A stretch of 54,300 nt of DNA from assembly GCA_003151795.1 (NCBI GenBank), contig PLYL01000006.1, forward strand, positions 1 through 54,300, read 5' to 3'. Source of the DNA: Candidatus Yanofskybacteria bacterium. Its GTDB lineage: Bacteria > Patescibacteriota > Minisyncoccia > 2-02-FULL-40-12 > GWA2-44-9. The notes beneath the pieces are model-generated. The model had not been told where the DNA came from, ran no database searches, and was given only the letters and a program-made list of their open reading frames with translations. This document shows, piece after piece, positions 1,506-52,707 of this stretch. The first letter of the stretch is position 1. Each line of letters starts with the position of its first letter. A program made the position numbers and the translations under genes.

Positions 1506-2264
1506 CTATTTCTTTGAGACGTAATCTATTACTTTGTCCCAATCAAGATTGTCTTTAGTATAAAAAAGCTCTACGACTTCCCTGGTCATTTCATTAATCT
1601 TTTTAATATACAATTCTTTGAATACTTCGTCTCTCTTTTTTGCTTCTTTTCCAAGCGGTTGAATTATTTTTTTATACAACTGTTCATCACCTGAAATTAA
1701 ATCCCAGAAAGACTGCCCGCATATTTTATGATAACTAAGATCAGGATTCTTACTCACTTTGTGGGGCTTATTATCGCGTCCGTAAATACAGCCGTTAACA
1801 GATATTATGTTAGTTTTATTTAATTCCGCTCGCAAAAGTTTTTTCGCAATTCTAAAATTTCTTTTCATCGTATTTATTTGGTCTGAATTCCCCCAATTTG
1901 GACCAGATTTGATACCTACTATATAAGTTTTATTATCGCGCTCAAATATTAAGTCTACACTTCGATATTTTTTCTCTTCGGCTTTCTTGCCATTAAATAC
2001 TTCTTCGCAAACGTGAATAGCAAGATTTTCCATTAAGTCACCAAAAATTGTCTCTTCTTGAGATGATAAAAATGCATCAAGAATACTTTTAGCCAAATCT
2101 CCAGCCATTTCTATGTTCTTTGCCTTAAATAAATAGGGATTCTTTCTTTTTGAAATAGTTGATAGCTTTGCTAGCTCGAGTTGGGCAAGCCTAATATCGT
2201 AAAATGGTTTAATGACATCGGAATCTATAAATGTATTTAATTTTTCGTAGTTTAAATTTTTCAT
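1506..2264 (-). CDS. putative type II restriction endonuclease (partner of the adjacent methyltransferase)
   Basis: The ATG at 2264 (MKNLNYEKL) lies 1 nt after the methyltransferase stop. The track ORF start at 2333 would overlap the MTase. The gene is AT-rich like the MTase. A possible PD-(D/E)XK-like core is VDLIFERDNKTYIVGIKSG. The family could not be named by eye. Confidence 0.5.
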   Translation of the reverse strand: MKNLNYEKLNTFIDSDVIKPFYDIRLAQLELAKLSTISKRKNPYLFKAKNIEMAGDLAKSILDAFLSSQEETIFGDLMENLAIHVCEEVFNGKKAEEKKYRSVDLIFERDNKTYIVGIKSGPNWGNSDQINTMKRNFRIAKKLLRAELNKTNIISVNGCIYGRDNKPHKVSKNPDLSYHKICGQSFWDLISGDEQLYKKIIQPLGKEAKKRDEVFKELYIKKINEMTREVVELFYTKDNLDWDKVIDYVSKK

Positions 2265-2265
2265 A

Positions 2266-3138
2266 TTATATTGTTTGTTTATTAATATTATCAAAAGCCA
2301 GTTTATGATATTCTTCCTGAATTTCAATACCAATAGAATTTCTGTCTAAATTGAAGGCAACTATAGATGTTGTGCCCGAACCTAAGAATGGGTCCAAAAC
2401 AGTATCACCAGGCTTTGTAAAAAGTTTAATAAACCATAAAGGAAGCTCTTTAGGAAAGACGGCGCTATGGCTTTTATTAGAGCTTTCAGTTGCCATCAAA
2501 AGTACGTTGGTCGGATATGCTAATTCACGACCAACCCATTTGGAAACATTTTTTCCAAAGCCACTACCAACTCTTGAATTGTCTCTTCGTTTATCAGTTT
2601 CGCTAAGATTTTTTAGTCGACTCTTGGCCCAGTCGCCCATAGGTACCCGTACTTCATCCTGGTACATATTAAAATCTTTTTGTTTATTGAATTGAAGAAG
2701 CCGTTCCCAGGAATCCCGGAAACGGTTAGGCCATTTTCCTGGAAAACAATTTTTCTTATGCCAAATGAACTCTTCTGTCCAAAACCAGCCCTGTTTCCTC
2801 ATTGCCACGATCAGCTCCATAACGTAGGTGTGTCTCTCGCTATTAACAACTTTTTCTTTTATATTCAAAACAAATGTTCCTTTTGGTTTTAATACACGTA
2901 GCAATTCTTTTGTTATAGGTAAAAACCACTCGACATATTTATCAGGGCCAACTCCTCCGTATGTACTTTTCCTTTGATCAGCATAAGGGGGTGATGTAAT
3001 AATTAAATCTACAGAATTATCTTCTAGATTTTTAAGAACATCAAGAGAATCACCGAGAATTATATCGGCTTTTATTTTCGTCCTTGCCTTCTGGTTAAAT
3101 AAGTCGTTTTTTAGGATGGTGTTAATGGTCATGAGCAA
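2266..3138 (-). CDS. DNA methyltransferase, beta-class N4-cytosine/N6-adenine (SPPY type)
   Basis: Motif IV (TSPPYADQR) is near the N-terminus and motif I (DPFLGSGTT) near the C-terminus. The order IV then I defines the beta class. SPPY rather than DPPY leans towards N4-cytosine. Confidence 0.85.
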   Translation of the reverse strand: MLMTINTILKNDLFNQKARTKIKADIILGDSLDVLKNLEDNSVDLIITSPPYADQRKSTYGGVGPDKYVEWFLPITKELLRVLKPKGTFVLNIKEKVVNSERHTYVMELIVAMRKQGWFWTEEFIWHKKNCFPGKWPNRFRDSWERLLQFNKQKDFNMYQDEVRVPMGDWAKSRLKNLSETDKRRDNSRVGSGFGKNVSKWVGRELAYPTNVLLMATESSNKSHSAVFPKELPLWFIKLFTKPGDTVLDPFLGSGTTSIVAFNLDRNSIGIEIQEEYHKLAFDNINKQTI

Positions 3139-8551: not shown

Positions 8552-8560
8552 GGGGAAAAA

Positions 8561-8676
8561 GAATTAAGAAGTTAGAATTAAGAATTACGAATCAGGCCAA
8601 CCAATTTATCATATTCTACACTAATTTTTAAATAAAAGCAAACAGGCCTTAATTCTTAATTCGTACTTCTTAATTC
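8561..8676 (-). repeat. 26-bp-arm inverted repeat spanning almost the whole LOG-lon intergenic region
   Basis: GAATTAAGAAGTTAGAATTAAGAATT (8561-8586) pairs with AATTCTTAATTCGTACTTCTTAATTC (8651-8676). The pairing is 12 bp, a 2-nt mismatch, then 12 bp. Confidence 0.8.
8613..8641 (-). promoter_or_regulatory. sigma70-like promoter for lon, inside the loop of the inverted repeat
   Basis: In - sense: TTGCTT, 17-nt spacer, TAGAAT. Confidence 0.55.
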
Positions 8677-8683
8677 TGGTTTT

Positions 8684-9430: not shown

Positions 9431-9454
9431 AGTTATATTATAGCGACTTTTATT

Positions 9455-10813: not shown

Positions 10814-10820
10814 GGCTTAT

Positions 10821-11654
10821 TTATACGATTAACAAAGCGATAACGTAACCAATCAGAGTCATTGTCGCAATCGGAGGCAAGGCCGCCATGGGCTGGCGTT
10901 TGGGCTGGCTGACGAAGATAACATGGGTCAGAAGCAAGCCCAGGAGCGCGAAGCACGCCACGATAATCGCCTCCGGCAATGATTGGCGGACCAAGGAGCT
11001 CACAAAAATTACGGGCAAACCAATATCGCCCGAACCGAGAATCATAAAATCTTGGCCGATGCGATGCTTGGCTTCATGGCGGGAGGCCATAAAGTGCCGA
11101 AAACTCGAAGGGATAATCAACCCGAACACGGCCCCGGAACGAATCATGCTCTCCGCCATCCGGACCATATGCCGGGTCTTATACACGGCGATGATATCGT
11201 AAAAAGACAGCAACACTAAAGCCAGGATGCCGACCGCCGGCGTAATCATGATGCCGATTGCGGCGCCGATGCCGGCAATGGCCAGAATAATCGCTAAATC
11301 GTGCACAATCACGTTATGGACTAGAAGAAAAATCGCCAGAATAAACAAAGCGCCGATAATATCGGTCGGGAATGGCGCCATCGAGGCAATCACAATCTGG
11401 GCGCCGGAGAGGATGATAATCGAGAGAAAAATCCAAAACATCCAGCTCGCTAGCCGAGGGGTCCGGCTAATGAACCAAACGGCGGCGAGGATGAAGGCAA
11501 ACCCGGCCAAGTCCCCGAGGGTGATGGAAGAGGGCTGATAAATTTCAACGCTCGAGAGCAGAAGCACATACCGATAGGCCACGAACAAACCCAGCGCGAG
11601 AGTCGCGCCGAACATCAACGCCTCTTTTAAAAAAAGACTTGGCTGGATTTTCAT
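10821..11654 (-). CDS. presenilin / signal-peptide-peptidase-like intramembrane aspartyl protease (A22-like)
   Basis: Polytopic protein with a YD motif (LLSFYDIIAVY), a GxGD motif (ILGSGDIGLP) and a PAL-like AALPP near the C-terminus. I set the start at ATG 11654 because the track extension is translation of the repeat arm. Confidence 0.6.
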   Translation of the reverse strand: MKIQPSLFLKEALMFGATLALGLFVAYRYVLLLSSVEIYQPSSITLGDLAGFAFILAAVWFISRTPRLASWMFWIFLSIIILSGAQIVIASMAPFPTDIIGALFILAIFLLVHNVIVHDLAIILAIAGIGAAIGIMITPAVGILALVLLSFYDIIAVYKTRHMVRMAESMIRSGAVFGLIIPSSFRHFMASRHEAKHRIGQDFMILGSGDIGLPVIFVSSLVRQSLPEAIIVACFALLGLLLTHVIFVSQPKRQPMAALPPIATMTLIGYVIALLIV

Positions 11655-11791
11655 CCCGCACATAACAAGCACCAACTGCTTAGGCAATACAAATGTTTGT
11701 ATTATCCAAGATTATCAGTGCTGCATGGTTAATATTATTTATATACAGACAGTGACATAATCGTATTGCAAGTGCTCGTTATGTGCGGGAT
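11653..11791 (-). repeat. type-1 palindromic intergenic element, copy 1 (139 nt)
   Basis: Arms 11653-11672 and 11772-11791 pair at 19/20 positions, with G.U at the exception in - sense. The element spans exactly from the stop TAA (11793-11791) to the ATG (11654-11652). Confidence 0.85.
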
Positions 11792-12072
11792 TAGTAATTC
11801 AGCCACGGCCGATCCGGATACTGGTGAATAAAATAGTTGTAGCCTTGGCCGGGCGGGATGGCAATATTATTATCTTTAATCCACTGGGCAATCAGCTGGC
11901 GCTCGGTTGAAGACATCGATTTCACTTGAGTGGCGGACGCGTCAAGGACAATCTGGTCGGAGTCATAGTTTTTAATCGCGATAAATAAAATGCCGGCCAT
12001 AAACATCGCCATCAAAGAAATAAATACCGCGCCCATTCGGGACTCGACTTGCATTGTCAGCGGATTGGTCAT
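11791..12072 (-). CDS. hypothetical small membrane-anchored protein
   Basis: 93 aa with one N-terminal TM helix. No family recognised. Confidence 0.4.
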   Translation of the reverse strand: MTNPLTMQVESRMGAVFISLMAMFMAGILFIAIKNYDSDQIVLDASATQVKSMSSTERQLIAQWIKDNNIAIPPGQGYNYFIHQYPDRPWLNY

Positions 12073-12566: not shown

Positions 12567-12604
12567 GGCTTAATAATAGCAAACTTTGTCTACGTAAAAC
12601 AAGC

Positions 12605-14807: not shown

Positions 14808-15719
14808 TCAGAATATTTTGCGCAATACTTTATATACCAAAAACCAGAAACGGCGGATAGGCATATCAAACGCGCCGGGATATTCGATTTGGCGGCCGCC
14901 CCAGCCGAGTTTGAAGCGGGTAACACCTGGGTACCTCTGTGCATCAATGCCCCAAAAGTCGTAATATTTCATGCCATACCCCTTCGCTGTCTTTATCAGT
15001 TCCCATTGCATTAAGTACGGCGCCATCATCGGTTTGTATTTCGGATTCCGGTCCATCGCGCCGTGCAAATAATATGCCGTATCGCCATAAGCCAGCCATA
15101 TCGCGCCGGCAATCGATGTGCCTTCGTGCTCAACAAAGACAGTTTCTGCCACAATGCCAGTGGTATTGCAGAGTTTTTCGTAATATTCTTTAGAATGGGT
15201 AGAGAAATTATCGTTCTTGGCGGTGTGCTTCAATAATTTCCAAAAAGCATCGATGTCTTTGCGAAAAACAAGTTTCAAATTATTTCTCTCCGCGACTTTA
15301 ATGTTGTATCGGGTCTTATGGTGCATCGCCGCCAATAATTCTTCTTCGGATTTTTCCAAATCCATAATTACCGACCGATGAGGCTGAACTTCTTTGGATG
15401 ATTTTTTAAATCCGGCGCCGTAGAGCAATTCAATGGTGCTATCCTGAAGCGGTTCTATTTTTATAAAAATAGACTTTTGTTCTCGGGCCAGATTTTTTAA
15501 ATATGTAATAAATTTTTCAAGTTCGTTCTTAATCCCACTACCCATTTCATCAAGTTTCAATTCCGGCCCGTGCGGAATATATAAATAATTCATCCCAAAT
15601 GGCAAATCATGCTGGATGATATTGGCGATAACTTTCCCATCGTTATATGAAAAAGTCTTTCTTCCAATAGAACTTTGAAACTTTAACCACTCATCAGATT
15701 GTAGGAAAGACTTTTTCAT
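14808..15719 (-). CDS. FemAB-family peptidoglycan bridge-forming aminoacyltransferase (FemX/MurM-like)
   Basis: 303 aa. The N-terminus MKKSFLQSDEWLKFQSSIGRKTF and the overall length fit FemAB. A GGAG SD lies 9 nt upstream. Confidence 0.75.
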   Translation of the reverse strand: MKKSFLQSDEWLKFQSSIGRKTFSYNDGKVIANIIQHDLPFGMNYLYIPHGPELKLDEMGSGIKNELEKFITYLKNLAREQKSIFIKIEPLQDSTIELLYGAGFKKSSKEVQPHRSVIMDLEKSEEELLAAMHHKTRYNIKVAERNNLKLVFRKDIDAFWKLLKHTAKNDNFSTHSKEYYEKLCNTTGIVAETVFVEHEGTSIAGAIWLAYGDTAYYLHGAMDRNPKYKPMMAPYLMQWELIKTAKGYGMKYYDFWGIDAQRYPGVTRFKLGWGGRQIEYPGAFDMPIRRFWFLVYKVLRKIF

Positions 15720-15756
15720 ATCAAACCGCTCCCGATTTCGCCCAAGCGAAGCTTGG

Positions 15757-20240: not shown

Positions 20241-20311
20241 TTCTCAAAAACGCGCCTAGAAGCGTTTTTGAGAATGGTTTAAAAAACTACCATATGGTAG
20301 TTTTTTAAACC
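20241..20311. terminator. two tandem bidirectional hairpins between convergent rpsT and ftsW
   Basis: TTCTCAAAAACGC/GCGTTTTTGAGAA (20241-20274), followed by a perfect 36-nt palindrome GGTTTAAAAAACTACCAT/ATGGTAGTTTTTTAAACC (20276-20311). Confidence 0.7.
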
Positions 20312-20320
20312 ATTCTGTTT

Positions 20321-21394: not shown

Positions 21395-21413
21395 GCCAAT
21401 ATTGTAGCACTTT

Positions 21414-22478
21414 TTATTTAAATGGCGGGAGTTTGCTGTCGATGAGGAAGAGGACCAGGCCGATAATGGCGCCGATGGCGTTGATCATCCAGAAACGCAT
21501 GGTGATTTGGGTTTCGGGCCAGCCCATGGCTTCGAAGGTGTGGTGAATCGGCGTCGAAGGAAATATTTTCTTCTTCCGGATTTTTTTTGAAATAGTTTGG
21601 AGAATGACCGAGCCGGACTCCATCAAAGGAATAATGGCGATAATCGGCAAGAGCAATTCAGTATTCGTGAGCAACGCCACGACCCCGACCGTAAAACCCA
21701 GGGCCATCACACCGGTATCGCCCATGAAAAACTTGGCGGGATAAATATTGAACCACAGGAATCCAATCAGCGCGCCCATAATCGCAACGAGAAAAATCGT
21801 GAGATCAAAACGGCCCTGGTCAAACGCAATCGCGGCCAGCGCGCCAAAGATAGTGAGAAACACTCCGCCCGATAAACCATCGAGGCCGTCGGTTTCATTC
21901 ATTGAGAATGCTGTGGCAACCATAATAAAAATAAAATAAGGGATGTACCACCAACCAATCGTATATTCTCCCAGAAACGGCACCGTAATCGTCCGAATGT
22001 CGAGCTTAAAATAAAACCACCACGCGCCGATAGCCGCCACGCCAATAAAAAATAACAGGCGCTTGCTCAATTTTAGACCTCCGCGCTTTAAAACACCCAC
22101 CATGTCATCAGCCATGCCGACCAAGCCCGCGAGAATTAAAAAGCCCAATGGGAGCAAGGTCTGGCTTCGGGAAAGAAAATTAATCCGACCCCAGATACCG
22201 CCAAATAAAGTGGCGAGTAACCAGCACCCGAGAGTGATTATCGAAACGGTCAGCCAAATCGGCAAACCGCCCATCGTCGGGGTGCCTTCTTTTTTGCGAT
22301 GGAGACTATTAAAGATGGGTGTATCCGAGCGCTCAATGGCCTTGCCCGGTTTAAAGCGAGTGAACAAAACCTTAGTCCAGAAGTGGGTGATGATGAGATT
22401 TAAAAAGAAGGCCGTCGTGGCAATCACAAACAGCCGGACGACGTTAAATATATTGAGGCTTTCGAGAGGAATCGTCAT
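21414..22478 (-). CDS. mraY: phospho-N-acetylmuramoyl-pentapeptide transferase
   Basis: MGDTGVMALG, NETDGLDGL and other MraY motifs. Start at ATG 22478. Confidence 0.9.
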   Translation of the reverse strand: MTIPLESLNIFNVVRLFVIATTAFFLNLIITHFWTKVLFTRFKPGKAIERSDTPIFNSLHRKKEGTPTMGGLPIWLTVSIITLGCWLLATLFGGIWGRINFLSRSQTLLPLGFLILAGLVGMADDMVGVLKRGGLKLSKRLLFFIGVAAIGAWWFYFKLDIRTITVPFLGEYTIGWWYIPYFIFIMVATAFSMNETDGLDGLSGGVFLTIFGALAAIAFDQGRFDLTIFLVAIMGALIGFLWFNIYPAKFFMGDTGVMALGFTVGVVALLTNTELLLPIIAIIPLMESGSVILQTISKKIRKKKIFPSTPIHHTFEAMGWPETQITMRFWMINAIGAIIGLVLFLIDSKLPPFK

Positions 22479-22615
22479 CCCGCACATAACAAGCACCGAC
22501 TGCTTTAGCAATACGATTGTTCGTATTAACCAAGCTTATCAGTACTGTATGATTAATTATTATTAAATATGCATAGTCCCGCAGTAGTATTGCCAGTGCT
22601 TGTTATGTGCGGGAT
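22477..22615 (-). repeat. type-1 palindromic intergenic element, copy 2 (139 nt)
   Basis: Arms 22477-22496 and 22596-22615 are perfectly complementary (20/20). The element spans exactly from the stop TAA (22617-22615) to the mraY ATG (22478-22476). Confidence 0.9.
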
Positions 22616-23541
22616 TATTGCCAGCGATAGGCCTGCTTGGCCCAAGAAATTAAGTTTTTCATGTCGCCGAAGCGGTCGTGGGAACCAAGAATAATGGCGA
22701 TGATGCGATCGCTTTGATTCGGCGCGTCTACAATCAGAATCATACACCCGAGAGCGCTGTCTGTATACCCGGTTTTTCCACCGACAATATCCGAAAGGAC
22801 GCCTAAAAGCTGATCCGTGCTCTTGATTTCGTGGGAGATTTTACCGTCCGCCGAGACAATCGTCGCGCTGGATTGGCGGGAAAAACTCCAGAGGGCATCG
22901 TAGCGCAAGGCGTAAGCCACACCCTTTACCAGGTCGCTCGCTGTCGAGTAGCCCAGGTCGTTCAGCCCGGCCGGATCGACAAAGTGGGTGTCGTGCATCC
23001 CCAACGCGGTCGCCTTAGCGTTCATCTCCGCCACCAAGTCAATACTATGGCTCGCGGCATAGTCGCGCAGGGCGTAAGCGGCGTCGTTGGACGACTCGAT
23101 GAACATCATCTGCATTAAATCATGCACTGAAAGCGTTTCGCCGGCGTAGAGGTCTTTGCGCTGGCCGTCGACCTCGACTGCCGAAGACTGAACCGTGACG
23201 ATATCGTTGGGACTGAATTTTTCCCAGACCACGACCGCGTTCATGACTTTGGTCAGCGAAGCGATGGATAATTTATCTTTGATATTTTTCTCAAAAAGAT
23301 TGCGGTCGGATTTCACGTCATAGAGGATCGCGGACTTCGCGTCCAAAGGAACTTCATTCGCCGAGGTATCGAGAATGGGCAAATAACTGATGGGCTGGGA
23401 CGGAAAAATAAAAGCCTGATTGTCGTGAAATACCGCGCTCGGCCCATCCAGCGGCGTGCGATAAATCGTAATAAAAAAATAGGCGTTCGCTAACACCAAG
23501 ATTGCGACGACTATTGTCAGGCCGGCCAACTTTCGATCCAT
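22615..23541 (-). CDS. D-alanyl-D-alanine carboxypeptidase (S11, PBP5-like)
   Basis: SIASLTKVM (SxxK), SSN (SxN) and KTGYT (KTG) motifs. There is an N-terminal TM anchor. Confidence 0.8.
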   Translation of the reverse strand: MDRKLAGLTIVVAILVLANAYFFITIYRTPLDGPSAVFHDNQAFIFPSQPISYLPILDTSANEVPLDAKSAILYDVKSDRNLFEKNIKDKLSIASLTKVMNAVVVWEKFSPNDIVTVQSSAVEVDGQRKDLYAGETLSVHDLMQMMFIESSNDAAYALRDYAASHSIDLVAEMNAKATALGMHDTHFVDPAGLNDLGYSTASDLVKGVAYALRYDALWSFSRQSSATIVSADGKISHEIKSTDQLLGVLSDIVGGKTGYTDSALGCMILIVDAPNQSDRIIAIILGSHDRFGDMKNLISWAKQAYRWQ

Positions 23542-24870: not shown

Positions 24871-24936
24871 TTATGCATCTTAACACAAAAATCCGCCCAA
24901 ACAAGACGGATTTTGTGGGTTAATCCTTATCGTCCT

Positions 24937-28267: not shown

Positions 28268-29575
28268 TTAAACAGTTGGAATTCCGGCCGGGGCTTCGCC
28301 TTTCTTGGTTTCGATGCGGGGCAAGGATGGCGTCTTCACGCCGACGTCGGGCACATGAAATATGGTCGTCAATTCTTCGGTATTCAAAACCAAAGGCTTA
28401 TCGGGGAAGGCGCGTTCTCGATAGCGTTTATATATTTTTTTCTTATTTTTTAAGGCTCGAACGGCTTTATTGAAGCCCTTGGTGATATCAGTCGAAATGC
28501 CCGGCTTGAAACCATTGAGAGCCTGAGTGGCGAATTGTTTGAACGCGCCGGCGACACTGCGCATCCGACCGTCGTCATATTTATCGAGCGGAGCGATATA
28601 AACCATCCGAATGCCGGCTTCAAAGGCTAGTTTGGCCGTGCCTTTTTCAATTGTTTTAACTATCTCCTGAATGCCAGGGTTGAGTTGATTGAATGGTTTG
28701 TCTTCTTTCTTTTTTTCTTCCTTTTTATCTTTTGGTTCGGCCGGCTCATAAATCGCGCCGGCGACGGAGCGGGCGCCGCCCTCAATGCCGGCAAAGACCG
28801 AATCGGCAAAATTTGTCTTTTTCTTTTCTTCTCGGCCCATCAGCTTGTCCACGGCCGGCTGGCCCTTTTTAACCCAGGCGTCCCCGGTCGAGCGGGCCAA
28901 AATCTGGATTCCGAAAAATTCCGAGAGACCCAGCGCGCCCAAAGTCTCGGCAATCGGGGCCAAAGGGTCAATCCGGCGGACGTCGTCTTTACCGGCGCCT
29001 TCTTCCTCAAATTCCGGATAGGTCTTGATGGGGAAAATATCTTCTTTGATGAAGACCAATTCGAGGGCGTTGACATTGACCTCGCCGTAAGACAGCGCGG
29101 CCGGAAAACGCGACATGTAATCCGCCACTGGCGTTAATTCCGATTCGGGATATTGGGCGTAAACCTGGGCTTCGACCAAACTTTTATACTTCTCGATGGC
29201 TCGAATGTAAAAATGAATCTCTCCGCCCGAACCGACCATTTCCAGCGCGAGCCAGTCCGGCACCTTGCCTTTAAAGAAGGCGTCCCGCCATTTTTTATAT
29301 TTTTCCCAGAGATTTTTGGCGGGCGACGATTGCCCGACGACGTGAAAGCCGGCGAAAATCTGCTCCATCGCCTTTAAGCTCTTATGGGCGTCAATGGGAA
29401 TCTTGAGCTCATAAGTAATCCACTTCAATCCGGCCTTGTAGACTTTTTTATTGTATTCCTTAAGCGCTTCCGCGTAGACGAAAATGAGGATGATGGGCGC
29501 CCAAAGCCACCAGTAGGCAAACATGAAACCCAAAGCCGTCCAAGTCGAGCCCAGGGTGTTTAGGATTGGATCCAT
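28268..29575 (-). CDS. membrane-anchored hypothetical protein, operon partner of the ATPase
   Basis: 435 aa starting at ATG 29575, with an N-terminal TM segment and a KKEEKKKEDK linker. Its stop lies 2 nt before the ATPase start. Confidence 0.5.
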   Translation of the reverse strand: MDPILNTLGSTWTALGFMFAYWWLWAPIILIFVYAEALKEYNKKVYKAGLKWITYELKIPIDAHKSLKAMEQIFAGFHVVGQSSPAKNLWEKYKKWRDAFFKGKVPDWLALEMVGSGGEIHFYIRAIEKYKSLVEAQVYAQYPESELTPVADYMSRFPAALSYGEVNVNALELVFIKEDIFPIKTYPEFEEEGAGKDDVRRIDPLAPIAETLGALGLSEFFGIQILARSTGDAWVKKGQPAVDKLMGREEKKKTNFADSVFAGIEGGARSVAGAIYEPAEPKDKKEEKKKEDKPFNQLNPGIQEIVKTIEKGTAKLAFEAGIRMVYIAPLDKYDDGRMRSVAGAFKQFATQALNGFKPGISTDITKGFNKAVRALKNKKKIYKRYRERAFPDKPLVLNTEELTTIFHVPDVGVKTPSLPRIETKKGEAPAGIPTV

Positions 29576-29710
29576 CCCGCACTTAACGAGCATCTGGCTT
29601 CTAGTCTCGCTCATCGTCTATGACGATATGCGCGCCAATGCTTATTATATTATATACAATATCTGGATACGCCATCACTTTAGAGACTAATGCTCGCTTA
29701 AGTGCGGGAT
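29574..29710 (-). repeat. type-1 palindromic element, copy 3 (137 nt, diverged)
   Basis: Arms 29574-29593 and 29690-29710 pair with one bulge. A second stem is TAGTCTC (29602-29608) / GAGACTA (29683-29689). The element ends at the ATG (29575-29573). Confidence 0.8.
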
Positions 29711-29748
29711 CCATTATGCTATTAGTATACTCCTTCCTAACATTACAT

Positions 29749-33659: not shown

Positions 33660-33715
33660 GCCCGCGACGGCGCGCACCAAACGAGGTGCCCGTCGGACGC
33701 GGGCACTTTGTTTTT
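33660..33715 (+). terminator. conserved 18-nt 3' box plus intrinsic terminator (copy 1)
   Basis: GCCCGCGACGGCGCGCAC (33660-33677), then GTGCCCG, a 7-nt loop, CGGGCAC and TTTGTTTTT. Confidence 0.7.
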
Positions 33716-33759
33716 ATCTGTGCTCAAAAGTGTCCGTACGGACACTTTTGAGCACAGAT
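33716..33759. promoter_or_regulatory. perfect 44-bp palindrome (operator-like or cruciform)
   Basis: ATCTGTGCTCAAAAGTGTCCGT (33716-33737) is the exact reverse complement of ACGGACACTTTTGAGCACAGAT (33738-33759). Confidence 0.8.
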
Positions 33760-33779
33760 CAATCGAGAGATTCTTTTTC

Positions 33780-44630: not shown

Positions 44631-44671
44631 GCCCGCAACAGAGTTGAACTCTGTTGCGGGCGTCGTTTTTT
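44631..44671. terminator. bidirectional terminator between ORF 44099-44629 and hpf
   Basis: GCCCGCAACAGAGT-TGA-ACTCTGTTGCGGGC, then GTCGTTTTTTA. Confidence 0.75.
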
Positions 44672-44996
44672 ATTTACTAGGCTTGCGAGACAAGTCTTTT
44701 TTCTTTTCTTTGAGCTTTTTGATTTGGAGATGGAGTTCGTCGCGAGCTTCGTCGATGGCGGTGCGGAGATCCTTGTGGGTCGCTTCGCCGCGCAAGAGCG
44801 CGCCGCCGACTTTTAGATTTACTTCGGCATAAAATACGGGACCAGAACGATGGCGGAGCGAAGGCTTGCCGATTTCCACACTCGCACTGACTGGGCCCTT
44901 CTGAATAAACCTCTCGAGACTGCCTATCTTCTGTTCCGTAAATACCCGCAACGGCGCGTCGAGGGTGATGTTTTTGGCGGTAATATTTATTTTCAT
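44670..44996 (-). CDS. hpf: ribosome hibernation promoting factor (short HPF/RaiA)
   Basis: MKINITAKNITLDAPLRVFTEQKIGSLERF... is typical of HPF. 108 aa. Confidence 0.85.
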   Translation of the reverse strand: MKINITAKNITLDAPLRVFTEQKIGSLERFIQKGPVSASVEIGKPSLRHRSGPVFYAEVNLKVGGALLRGEATHKDLRTAIDEARDELHLQIKKLKEKKKDLSRKPSK

Positions 44997-45066
44997 CCCG
45001 TTAGAAGTTGCCAGCCCGAGGCCCTGCGGACTGCACTCAAAGTGCAGGCTGGACTCTAAACGGGAC
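44995..45066 (-). repeat. type-2 start-codon-abutting hairpin element (72 nt)
   Basis: TCCCG/CGGGA and CCAGCC/GGCTGG stems enclose a CTGCAC-n5-GTGCAG hairpin. The element ends at the hpf ATG (44996-44994). Confidence 0.75.
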
Positions 45067-48883: not shown

Positions 48884-51103
48884 CTACCAAGTTCGGCCGA
48901 GTTTCTGGACAAAGAGTTTGGCGTCGGCTTCAAAGCTAGGATCGATTTGGGCGGTAATGTGCGCTTGGGCGATAGCATCGTCAATCCGGCCGACGCTGGC
49001 GTAAGCAGCCGCCAAAGAAGCGTGGTACTGGGGGCTGTTGGGAACTAATTTGACTAATCCTTCATATACTGTCACGAGGTGCTGGAAATCGTTGCGCTTG
49101 ATATAAATGTTGGCAAGATTTAGATAATCGTTCTCGGCTAATGTGTATCCTTTCTTAATTGCTTCATCCATGTTAACCAAGGCTTTGTCGGTCTCGCCGG
49201 CTTGCATCTCAACGGCACCGAGATACCAATATGAAATACCGACATCGGGATTAAGGTCAACCGCTTTCTGGAAGGCGACTTCAGCCTTCGGATAATCCTT
49301 TTTGTTAAGATAGGCCTGGCCGACTTCATAATAGGTGCGGACGAATGTCGGCGAATAACTCAACGCCTTTGTGGAATGCTTCAAGGCCTCGTCATTATAC
49401 GGCGAATTAGGGTCTGATTTGCCAAGAATAATGTTTAAGCGGGATAGGTATAGCTCCGGCAAATAATCTTCAGTGTTCTCCGCCGCATTTTTTTCTTCCA
49501 AAGCAATAATTTCTTTAAAAATATCGGCTACTTCCGGCGTTATTTTATTACTATTACTATAGTCCAGCAGGAACTGGGCAAATTGGTTTCGATATTCATA
49601 TCGGCCATTTCCGTCGAAGGAAACGGCATCCCGGTAAGACGCGACCGCGGCGGTGAAATCATTGTTGTAGCCCGCGATAATGCCTCGGGTCGTGGCGTAA
49701 TTGGCAATGGCCGTCCGAACATTCGTCTGATACGCCAAATAAACGGCGCCGACGATAACGATAGCACCAAGCACGAACGTTAATCCTCCGGAAACCGGCC
49801 GGCCCGTTTTTGTTTCAATTCTCGGAGATTCCGGCCGGTTCAAAAACGAAATGTAGCCCAAGGCGCTGAAGAAGACCAGAAAATTCGCCGAAGTGTCGAA
49901 TATAAACGCGTTGTGAATTATATACGCGATGACCATGGAGATAAGGCCAATGGCCGGAACGCGGAATCCAGGCTTATTTTTTAAACGCCACAGCGCCCGG
50001 AATATCACGCCAAATAACGCTAGGTAGGCCAGAAACCCAAGCAGGCCCATCGTGACGAGAATTTCGACAAACATGTTGTGAGCTCGGTCAAACATGGTTT
50101 CTGAACTGGGGCCATTAAAGAATTTGGGATTGAAATATTTTGAAAACGGAATATTAAAATTTTCCGGGCCCCAGCCGAAAATAATTCTTTGGGGGCTCTC
50201 GCTCCAGCCTTTCAAACCGGCTTGCCAAGCCCAGAACCGGGTTTGGACGGTATAACTGGAGAGGGAAAGATCGGTCACCCGGCGCAAATATTGGGAGTTT
50301 TGAACAATTGCGCTATTTTTGAAAGCAAAAGCAAACCCGACGAACAGCACAACAAAGACCAGCATGGAAATCAAGACTTTTTTAGCCAGTTTTGAATTGG
50401 TTTGGGCAAAATACAAAAAAACAAAAACAAGAAAACCAATGCTTATTCCCAAAATAGAACCGCGGACCACAGTCATAAATACCGCCAGACTCATAACGGC
50501 CGCGGAAATTAGGAAAAAATTACGCTTGCTCTTTACGGCAGCCCCGAATCCTAGAATCAGCGCCAAGAAAACATTCAGAATCTGATAGCCGGCGAAAAGA
50601 GCCGGATTGCCAATCGTGCCGAAAATACGCTCCCGACCGCCGGAACCGATAAAGAAAGCTATATTAGTTCGTTGGCCAAATCCATACAGCGCCGAGAGCA
50701 CGCCGACGCCCACTGTAATTTCTAAGAACCTGAACCAGTCGTCTTTGGTTCGAAGAACCGAAGTTAGGATGATATAAAAGATGAAATAGTGCCAGAAGCT
50801 ATAGAGGCCACCCATGCGTTCAAGGGTGCCCCAGAAACTCTGATAGACATTTATACTCGTAAACGTCGTGACAGTGAAGGCGAGCGTGAAACTAAGAAAA
50901 GCCCAAAAGAAGATGTCGCGCCGAGGTAAAAAGGACCGATCCTGCCAGATTAAGACCAGGTAGAGAGCCAGCATAATCTCAACTAGACTTCTAAAGAGAA
51001 CTATTTTCCCAAAATGAAACGGCGAAATATACTGTGAAAAAATAACCAGCGGCATAAACGCGGCCGCGTAGACGCAATACTTCAATATTTTGTGGATATT
51101 CAT
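48884..51103 (-). CDS. O-antigen-ligase-like polytopic membrane protein fused to C-terminal TPR repeats
   Basis: 739 aa. The N-terminal roughly 440 aa are multi-TM and Wzy_C-like. The C-terminal part has TPR-like repeats (AYLNKKDYPKAEVAFQKAVDLNP and others). Confidence 0.7.
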   Translation of the reverse strand: MNIHKILKYCVYAAAFMPLVIFSQYISPFHFGKIVLFRSLVEIMLALYLVLIWQDRSFLPRRDIFFWAFLSFTLAFTVTTFTSINVYQSFWGTLERMGGLYSFWHYFIFYIILTSVLRTKDDWFRFLEITVGVGVLSALYGFGQRTNIAFFIGSGGRERIFGTIGNPALFAGYQILNVFLALILGFGAAVKSKRNFFLISAAVMSLAVFMTVVRGSILGISIGFLVFVFLYFAQTNSKLAKKVLISMLVFVVLFVGFAFAFKNSAIVQNSQYLRRVTDLSLSSYTVQTRFWAWQAGLKGWSESPQRIIFGWGPENFNIPFSKYFNPKFFNGPSSETMFDRAHNMFVEILVTMGLLGFLAYLALFGVIFRALWRLKNKPGFRVPAIGLISMVIAYIIHNAFIFDTSANFLVFFSALGYISFLNRPESPRIETKTGRPVSGGLTFVLGAIVIVGAVYLAYQTNVRTAIANYATTRGIIAGYNNDFTAAVASYRDAVSFDGNGRYEYRNQFAQFLLDYSNSNKITPEVADIFKEIIALEEKNAAENTEDYLPELYLSRLNIILGKSDPNSPYNDEALKHSTKALSYSPTFVRTYYEVGQAYLNKKDYPKAEVAFQKAVDLNPDVGISYWYLGAVEMQAGETDKALVNMDEAIKKGYTLAENDYLNLANIYIKRNDFQHLVTVYEGLVKLVPNSPQYHASLAAAYASVGRIDDAIAQAHITAQIDPSFEADAKLFVQKLGRTW

Positions 51104-51179
51104 CCCGTTAGAAGTAGCCCCGCCAAGGTCCTCCGGACTCGTCCAGCCTTCGGCGGACGAGCGAGACTTCTAACGGGAT
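51102..51179 (-). repeat. type-2 start-codon-abutting hairpin element (78 nt)
   Basis: ATCCCGTTAGAAGT (51102-51115) is perfectly complementary to ACTTCTAACGGGAT (51166-51179). The element ends at the ATG (51103-51101). Confidence 0.8.
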
Positions 51180-52584: not shown

Positions 52585-52648
52585 CGCGGGAGATAAATTA
52601 AGACCTTATAGTAACACGGATAACGCTTACTTTCTAGAATGATTTATA

Positions 52649-52690
52649 ATCTAAAACCTCTCCGACAATATCGTCGGAGAGGTTTTAGAT
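52649..52690 (-). terminator. perfect 18-bp hairpin downstream of ORF 52708-53697
   Basis: ATCTAAAACCTCTCCGAC, a 6-nt loop, GTCGGAGAGGTTTTAGAT. There is no clear U-tract. Confidence 0.5.
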
Positions 52691-52707
52691 TAAGTTAACC
52701 TTAACTG

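Follow-up and report, generated by a model that had tools for sequence, protein, structure and literature searches.

The long palindrome that fills the 139-nt gap (11791 to 11653) between the stop codon of a 93-aa ORF and the start of an SPP/presenilin-like gene is a copy of a MITE-like family of small mobile elements, whose hosts are Yanofskybacteria and other groundwater Patescibacteria. We consider it likely that this is a non-coding mobile family of the MITE type whose copies lie precisely at start codons and in the orientation of the gene, the last A of the element rebuilding the ATG. Three family copies, and no more, are present in the window, by which we mean the whole 54,300-nt stretch of DNA that was analysed (Table 1).

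Table 1. Coordinates of the three family copies in the window and of their landmarks
Feature	Position	Strand	Remarks
Copy 1, subject of the finding	11653..11791	-	hairpin z = -8.7; family HMM 96 bits in gene sense vs 48 antisense
Copy 1 core, TCCCGC...GCGGGA in gene sense	11654-11790	-	137 nt
5' (upstream, gene sense) terminal inverted repeat of copy 1	11772..11791	-	
3' terminal inverted repeat of copy 1	11653..11672	-	includes ATGTGCGGGA
TAA stop of 93-aa ORF (ORF 11791..12072)	11791..11793	-	directly adjoins copy 1
ATG of SPP/presenilin-like gene, PF06550 (gene 10821..11654)	11652..11654	-	
Copy 2	22477..22615	-	same interior type, ~80% identity to copy 1; z = -10.4
Copy 3	29575..29709	-	termini shared, interior different; z = -6.4
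Old start codon and target duplication (ATGGA) upstream of copy 3	29710..29714	-	

The hairpin and its family

The first-pass annotation of this DNA had described the gap as an imperfect palindrome, and most of what it said of copy 1 is borne out. The whole gap is a single long hairpin with UAA and AUG opposed at the base of the helix; the outer arms are complementary at 19 of 20 positions, and the lone mismatch, read directly from the letters, is G.U in minus-sense RNA and A.C in plus. The last A of UAA is paired with the U of AUG, the TAA closes the 93-aa ORF and the ATG opens the SPP/presenilin-like gene, while the local hairpin AAUACAAA..UUUGUAUU is present in the minimum-energy fold. The suggestion that folding is better in the transcribed sense holds for copy 1, the 145-nt RNA of which folds at -57.5 kcal/mol in the minus sense against -46.8 kcal/mol in the plus sense, but not for the family, where 24 of 38 copies behave in this way (p = 0.06). 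The A/T pair flanking the core is itself part of the stop and start codons, and the ATG of the downstream gene takes its A from the 3' terminal inverted repeat, whose last A it is, and its TG from the original site. The 5' terminal inverted repeat contains an in-frame TAA in one reading frame (TCC CGC ACA TAA).

A chance origin of such a structure can be dismissed, as can an ordinary transcription terminator separating the two genes. Nothing beyond its position between two ORFs recommends either explanation, whereas none of 200 shuffled sequences folds as well (z = -8.7), five matches to the arm were found with zero expected by chance, and there is neither a U-tract nor a terminator call; the dozens of homologous copies elsewhere also refute it. 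Within the window, copy 2 is preceded, in gene sense, by the TAA of a Peptidase_S11 gene (22615..23541) and followed by the ATG of a Glycos_transf_4 (MraY-like) gene (21414..22478), its terminal repeats pairing at 20 of 20 positions. Copy 3 is located at the ATG of a DUF8128 gene (28268..29575), and the second TGGA of its target duplication is found at 29571-29574. The sequences ATGAA, ATGGA and TAATG occur more than 300 times in the window, yet all three copies sit on start codons.

Several other features of the window were noted alongside these copies. Strong palindromes at 8560-8677, 15645-15721, 20271-20316, 33713-33762 and 52647-52692, with arms of 23-28 nt that are 92-100% complementary, are unrelated in sequence to the element and are possibly terminators or repeats of another kind. 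A second repeat of 44 nt is found at 44989-45032 and 51096-51139 (82% identical), directly upstream of the gene at 44670..44996 and of a Wzy_C/TPR gene at 48884..51103, and its gene-sense end, ...CTTCTAACGGGATGAA, recalls the ...GCGGGATGAA of the main element. Finally, GC content falls to about 0.38-0.42 at 1506-3138, where most of the window has 0.45-0.54; this low-GC stretch, with genes for an EcoO109I-like restriction endonuclease and an N6/N4 DNA methylase, is probably an acquired restriction-modification system.

Family elements are 127-140 bp long, have the ends TCCCGCACATAAC...GTTATGTGCGGGA with terminal inverted repeats of roughly 20 bp (the consensus stem is 19 bp), and possess no coding capacity, each of the three frames being stopped inside the first 60 nt or so. 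When one genome per species was scanned, the element was found in three GTDB genomes: a Candidatus Yanofskybacteria MAG and a Patescibacteria MAG each have full copies, and a Harrisonbacteria MAG has a longer relative; the remaining matches of that scan were single chance matches. A metagenome scan with a two-arm pattern recovered 54 contigs, among which the invariance of the outer 12 bp is partly due to the search pattern. The strict terminal pattern finds only two elements in the representative Yanofskybacteria MAG, so that copy number per genome is low. The flanks of copies at unrelated loci are about 50% identical. The first-pass annotation had named two outcomes that would refute its reading, a family confined to the window and the random positions and orientations of a purely selfish MITE; copies are, however, present in related genomes and in the metagenome contigs, and they lie at start codons in a single orientation. 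At the gathering threshold, an Rfam search of the window matched only a tRNA, and a permissive Rfam scan of the element gave only sub-threshold noise; viral, plasmid and phage collections contained no relatives of the element, and our literature search found no paper describing it.

The subfamilies differ in their interiors, and the inner stem covaries between them, with changes on both sides in 8 of 19 pairs. Many copies carry an internal TGCGGGA-like motif (for example at 22575-22581 in the window), which is missing from copy 1; it is confined to the left half (alignment columns ~43-55), points in the same direction as the right terminus and gives the element a built-in asymmetry. It might serve as an extra protein-binding site, or at the RNA level as a decoy that pairs with the 5' arm and so frees the AUG arm. 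Relatives of ~290 bp with similar termini (L006 6377-6669 and L064 8396-8684) may represent a stage on the way from a parent element to the 137-bp form. One further contig (L051, 1838-2050 and 5389-6150) matches the search pattern and is not a family member; it carries two opposed arrays of a ~50-nt unit with TCCCGCGCATAGAAC.

Start codons, orientation and the history of the insertions

Orienting each copy by its neighbouring ORF, we counted 36 distinct sites at which the element's final A (...GCGGGA) and the flanking TG together form the start codon of a long ORF. A direct duplication is present at 21 of these sites, being 4 bp at 16, 5 bp at four and 3 bp at one, and the duplicated sequence is the start codon with 1-3 following nucleotides (ATGAA-element-TGAA, ATGGA, ATGCAA and others, of the ATGRA type). 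The remaining 15 sites, copies 1 and 2 among them, have no duplication. The upstream gene's TAA stands directly before the element in ten contigs, representing seven distinct junctions, copies 1 and 2 among them; removing the element from such junctions restores a TAATG overlap (TAAGTG in L045). L015/L028 and L059/L067 give at least two further junctions, where the upstream ORF enters the left repeat and stops at TCC CGC ACA TAA. Both neighbouring genes therefore remain intact despite the near-absence of spacer DNA, because the element rebuilds the ATG while its left side keeps the stop/start: the A of the ATG is the element's own, and in one frame it supplies the stop codon as well.

One orthologous junction exists in both states, reading CACCTAATATGCAA-element-TGCAAG in L017 and CACCTAA-element-TGCAAG in L066, with elements that are 98% identical; either the old ATG was lost by a small deletion between AAT repeats, or there were two separate insertions. 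We rejected a simple rule that a TAATG context gives no duplication, since copy 3 is in such a context and has the TGGA duplication. At duplicated sites a -10-like box is often seen 5-7 nt ahead of the old ATG, and unduplicated sites are mostly gene-gene junctions, a pattern that would be expected from selection on translation.

The element also distorts gene annotation. Because the right repeat holds ATGTGCGGGATG, gene callers start the downstream gene three codons early (MCG). The first-pass annotation had taken the ATG at 11654 to be the first in frame, which it is not, as an in-frame ATG lies 9 nt upstream of it, at 11663-11661, within this part of the right arm; orthologues without the element nevertheless place the true start of the SPP/presenilin-like gene at 11654. 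Extra in-frame ATGs of this kind occur in the window at 11661-11663 and 22485-22487, and a public call of 280 aa, using the upstream ATG, in place of 277 aa marks loci that carry the element.

In 120 of 122 informative pairs the interior keeps one orientation with respect to the gene that follows, and the other two involve copies without a clear ORF. Similarly, the family HMM gives a higher score in gene sense to every matching copy but one, which again lacks a clear ORF. At three loci where the gene is on the local minority strand the orientation still follows the gene, which is weak evidence against its being set by the direction of replication. Nor is it set by the stops offered to read-through ORFs, which fall at similar positions whichever way the element is turned.

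Each of the three window copies has an empty counterpart among the relatives. For copy 3, three orthologous loci read CATAATGGATTC once and the window reads CATAATGGA-element-TGGATCC, a clean 4-bp duplication. The copy-2 site is empty in L072, where the two genes are 3 nt apart. For copy 1, L074 reads TACTAATGAAAATCC / TACTAATGAAAATCCAG, identical to the window minus the 137-nt core, and the spacer there measures 17 nt in L075 and 13 nt in L076. Of the three junctions, those of copies 1 and 2 are occupied by the element in the Yanofskybacteria MAG, and that of copy 3 is empty. Common descent is favoured by the fact that the only two strict-pattern matches in this MAG are at junctions shared with the window; repeated gain is favoured by a tree of the four flanking proteins, which pairs carriers with empty relatives, the empty L074 joining the MAG in 200/200 bootstraps and the empty L075 joining the window in 186/200. 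The presence and absence of copy 1 is hence incongruent with the flanking-gene tree, and either the same junctions received insertions more than once or the element was precisely lost several times. Recent transfer of a whole allele was considered and set aside, the immediate flanks of the element being not unusually similar.

The gene content of the copy-1 locus itself varies among relatives (L057 498-634, L061 14013-14149, L020 3540-3556). In one lineage the 93-aa gene is followed by the element and then by the beta-CASP gene, with no SPP gene; in another there is neither the 93-aa gene nor the SPP gene. The element marks a variable gene junction. In a third lineage the copies at the copy-2 and copy-1 junctions (L047 3053-3189 and L057 498-634) are 97% identical, compared with 80% for the window pair, which hints at gene conversion or re-insertion.

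Mobility, translation and the possible role of the hairpin

In accounting for these junctions we favour insertion of a MITE-type element. Its right end (...GCGGGA) would join the TG of a start codon, the last A restoring the ATG, and its left end would come to follow either a second copy of the start codon, duplicated over 3-5 bp (ATGRA), or, where stop and start overlap (TAATG), the upstream TAA. An upstream ORF that entered the left repeat would be stopped, in one frame, by the repeat's own TAA, and the long RNA hairpin would be the transcript of the inverted repeats. The element has the terminal inverted repeats, small non-coding body, many loci in several genomes and empty orthologous sites of a MITE. 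No parent insertion sequence or other autonomous element with the family termini was found in the window, in 575 kb of related loci or in the viral collection; where two termini did lie 0.25-4 kb apart, they were chance matches in coding DNA or a tRNA. IS1380-like elements, which have CC ends and 4-5 bp duplications, would be a lead towards a parent. Besides the parent that was not found, the MITE reading has against it the want of a duplication at copy 1, the low copy number, the misfit with the tree and the high identity of orthologous copies, which would be odd for old junk; a strict orientation is also unusual for transposons with inverted repeats.

Strict orientation is one of the observations that would suit movement by single-strand or site-specific recombination (integron attC-like, REPIN/RAYT or IS200/IS605-type) in place of a cut-and-paste transposase, as would folding of the element as a hairpin and the 15 of 36 sites, copy 1 included, that have no duplication. 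The ATAAC/GTTAT boxes of the element are also faintly like attC core sites. Still, we judge this route very unlikely. The 3-5 bp duplication at 21 of 36 sites, proven for copy 3 by its empty site, is contrary to it; the boxes are not terminal; the copies are single and 7-11 kb apart in housekeeping operons, not in cassette arrays; and no integrase or transposase was present among the 19 window proteins scanned. The interior also lacks complementarity to the flanks, guide-like matches measuring 6.9 nt where controls gave 7.0 nt.

The first-pass annotation was right that no SD-like motif precedes the ATG at copy 1, and mistaken in crediting many window genes with strong SDs, as a GGAG-like motif is found in only ~4 of 43. 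The anti-SD motif is reported to be missing from about half of Parcubacteria 16S rRNAs (PMC9297842), and since the organism hardly uses SD, the argument from a missing SD to a cis-acting RNA device is void. Several window genes instead have a TATAAT-like (TAnnnT) box at -12..-7 from the ATG (e.g. 9431-9445, 21395-21410, 12567-12582, 10814-10828 and 24871-24886), which suggests from sequence that leaderless mRNAs may be widespread in this organism. The element offers no such start: no gene-strand promoter was matched inside copy 1 or copy 2, and a TAnnnT box at the usual spacing is absent from the right arm. Because SD-led initiation appears to be largely missing, the downstream gene is probably translated by ribosomes arriving from the upstream ORF. 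With little SD use, an AUG held at the base of so stable a helix (about -57 kcal/mol) would hardly be reachable on its own; a ribosome stopped at UAA would cover roughly the next 12-13 nt, melt the base of the helix and so free the opposed AUG. Where a copy retains the old ATG, loading would occur there, and ribosomes would arrive by way of the short ORF that it opens. Against this scheme, stable structure just past stop codons has been reported to insulate against reinitiation, not to promote it (PMC7518266).

A rival view is that the element might be a selected, domesticated cis-acting RNA device, its helix handing ribosomes from UAA to AUG or otherwise controlling the downstream gene, an idea that we regard as possible though doubtful. 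Conservation speaks for it. Copies at orthologous junctions are 86%, 92% and 98% identical, more than the flanking coding DNA (72-81%) and far more than four-fold degenerate, neutral sites (44-55%, ~47%). The gene-linked orientation, the apposition of stop and start at seven distinct junctions in ten contigs, and the single orthologous junction that has the old ATG in L017 and an abutting TAA in L066 are likewise in its favour. On the other hand, sister lineages have the same gene pairs without the element, with TAATG or short spacers in its place; interiors vary between subfamilies; folding of the transcribed strand is not preferred across the family; and the internal motif of many copies is missing from copy 1. 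Moreover, copies at unrelated loci are also ~90% identical, as for a recently spreading repeat, so the high identity of both orthologous and unrelated copies means that the family is either young and still spreading or constrained.

A different use of the hairpin would be as mainly a processing site for RNase III or another RNase, cleavage giving separate cistrons and a short-leader or leaderless downstream mRNA. This proposal seems unlikely to us. The perfect outer stem of ~21 bp is a typical RNase III substrate, and many window genes are apparently leaderless, with the TAnnnT box at -12..-7. The inverted repeats of Correia elements are cut by RNase III (PMC10969869). However, RNase III cuts inside helices and the AUG sits at the base, so that a precise leaderless 5' AUG is not expected.

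Insertion of a mobile element and a function in translation could also be successive stages of one process. An element aimed at start codons and oriented with genes, whose ends supply a stop and an ATG, might afterwards become difficult to lose and, in an organism that starts translation without SD, be kept by purifying selection as a hairpin bridging the stop or old start to the AUG, and would then amount to a self-installing module for translational coupling. We offer this combined scenario tentatively, as a speculation with less than an even chance of being correct, and retain the MITE-type mobile family as our preferred explanation.

Known repeats and the significance of the element

The first-pass annotation had suggested a repeat of the ERIC or Correia kind. 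The likeness in kind is real, given the inverted termini, the many copies and the empty sites, but the element stands outside both families because its sequence, hosts and target duplication differ. Correia/NEMIS elements, a Neisseria MITE, resemble it in length (about 100-155 bp), in their long terminal inverted repeats and in forming an RNA hairpin when co-transcribed. Their target duplication is TA and their repeat the 26-bp Correia sequence, whereas the present element is flanked by ATGRA or TAA/TG, has the termini TCCCGCACATAAC and lives in Patescibacteria, not Neisseria. They also carry promoters and an IHF site, with no known tie to start codons or to one orientation. They are often near genes, their stem being cut by RNase III and neighbouring genes influenced (PMC10969869). 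ERIC is similarly an imperfect palindrome of ~127 bp in transcribed intergenic regions that can affect the fate of mRNA (PMC10969869); it differs in sequence and hosts, lies in spacers or at 3' ends and is not known to rebuild a start codon.

Rickettsia palindromic elements are small palindromes adapted to a compact genome in which genes are spared (PMC10969869), but they are inserted in frame within ORFs and translated, while the present element has all frames closed and lies at gene boundaries; not being translated, it is distinct from them. The Neisseria REP2 and Borrelia IR repeats lie immediately upstream of genes and supply the ATG (PMC3184786). These leaders bring a promoter and a ribosome-binding site and lack terminal inverted repeats, and the element, having no promoter and no SD, is distinct from them also. 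The Chunjie MITE of Geobacter has ~21-bp inverted repeats and very stable RNA folds, but is 178-235 bp long with 9-bp duplications, and no start-codon rule is reported for it in the texts consulted. Among RNA features, the ribosome termination structure is a stable mRNA structure directly after the stop that governs reinitiation (PMC7518266), but it is a general folding bias with a reported insulating effect, whereas here a repeat family places the next AUG at the foot of the same helix. Integron attC sites have terminal RYYYAAC/GTTRRRY boxes, cassette arrays and an integrase; in the element ATAAC/GTTAT is internal and single copies occur in conserved operons. The element works like the Correia, ERIC or Chunjie-type MITEs while differing from them in sequence, host and duplication. 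What is unusual is its precise seat on start codons, its strict orientation and its high conservation.

The genomes of Patescibacteria are tiny and gene-dense, and not much has been learned of their repeats or of translation start without SD. A repeat that colonises a start codon and repairs it, always in one orientation, illustrates how selfish DNA persists where there is no spare DNA, and it causes systematic mis-calls of gene starts in public annotations. If it is true that the hairpin passes ribosomes from stop to start, these junctions would be a natural test bed for SD-independent reinitiation; and if insertion is indeed directed by the start codon, the family would represent a new kind of target choice.
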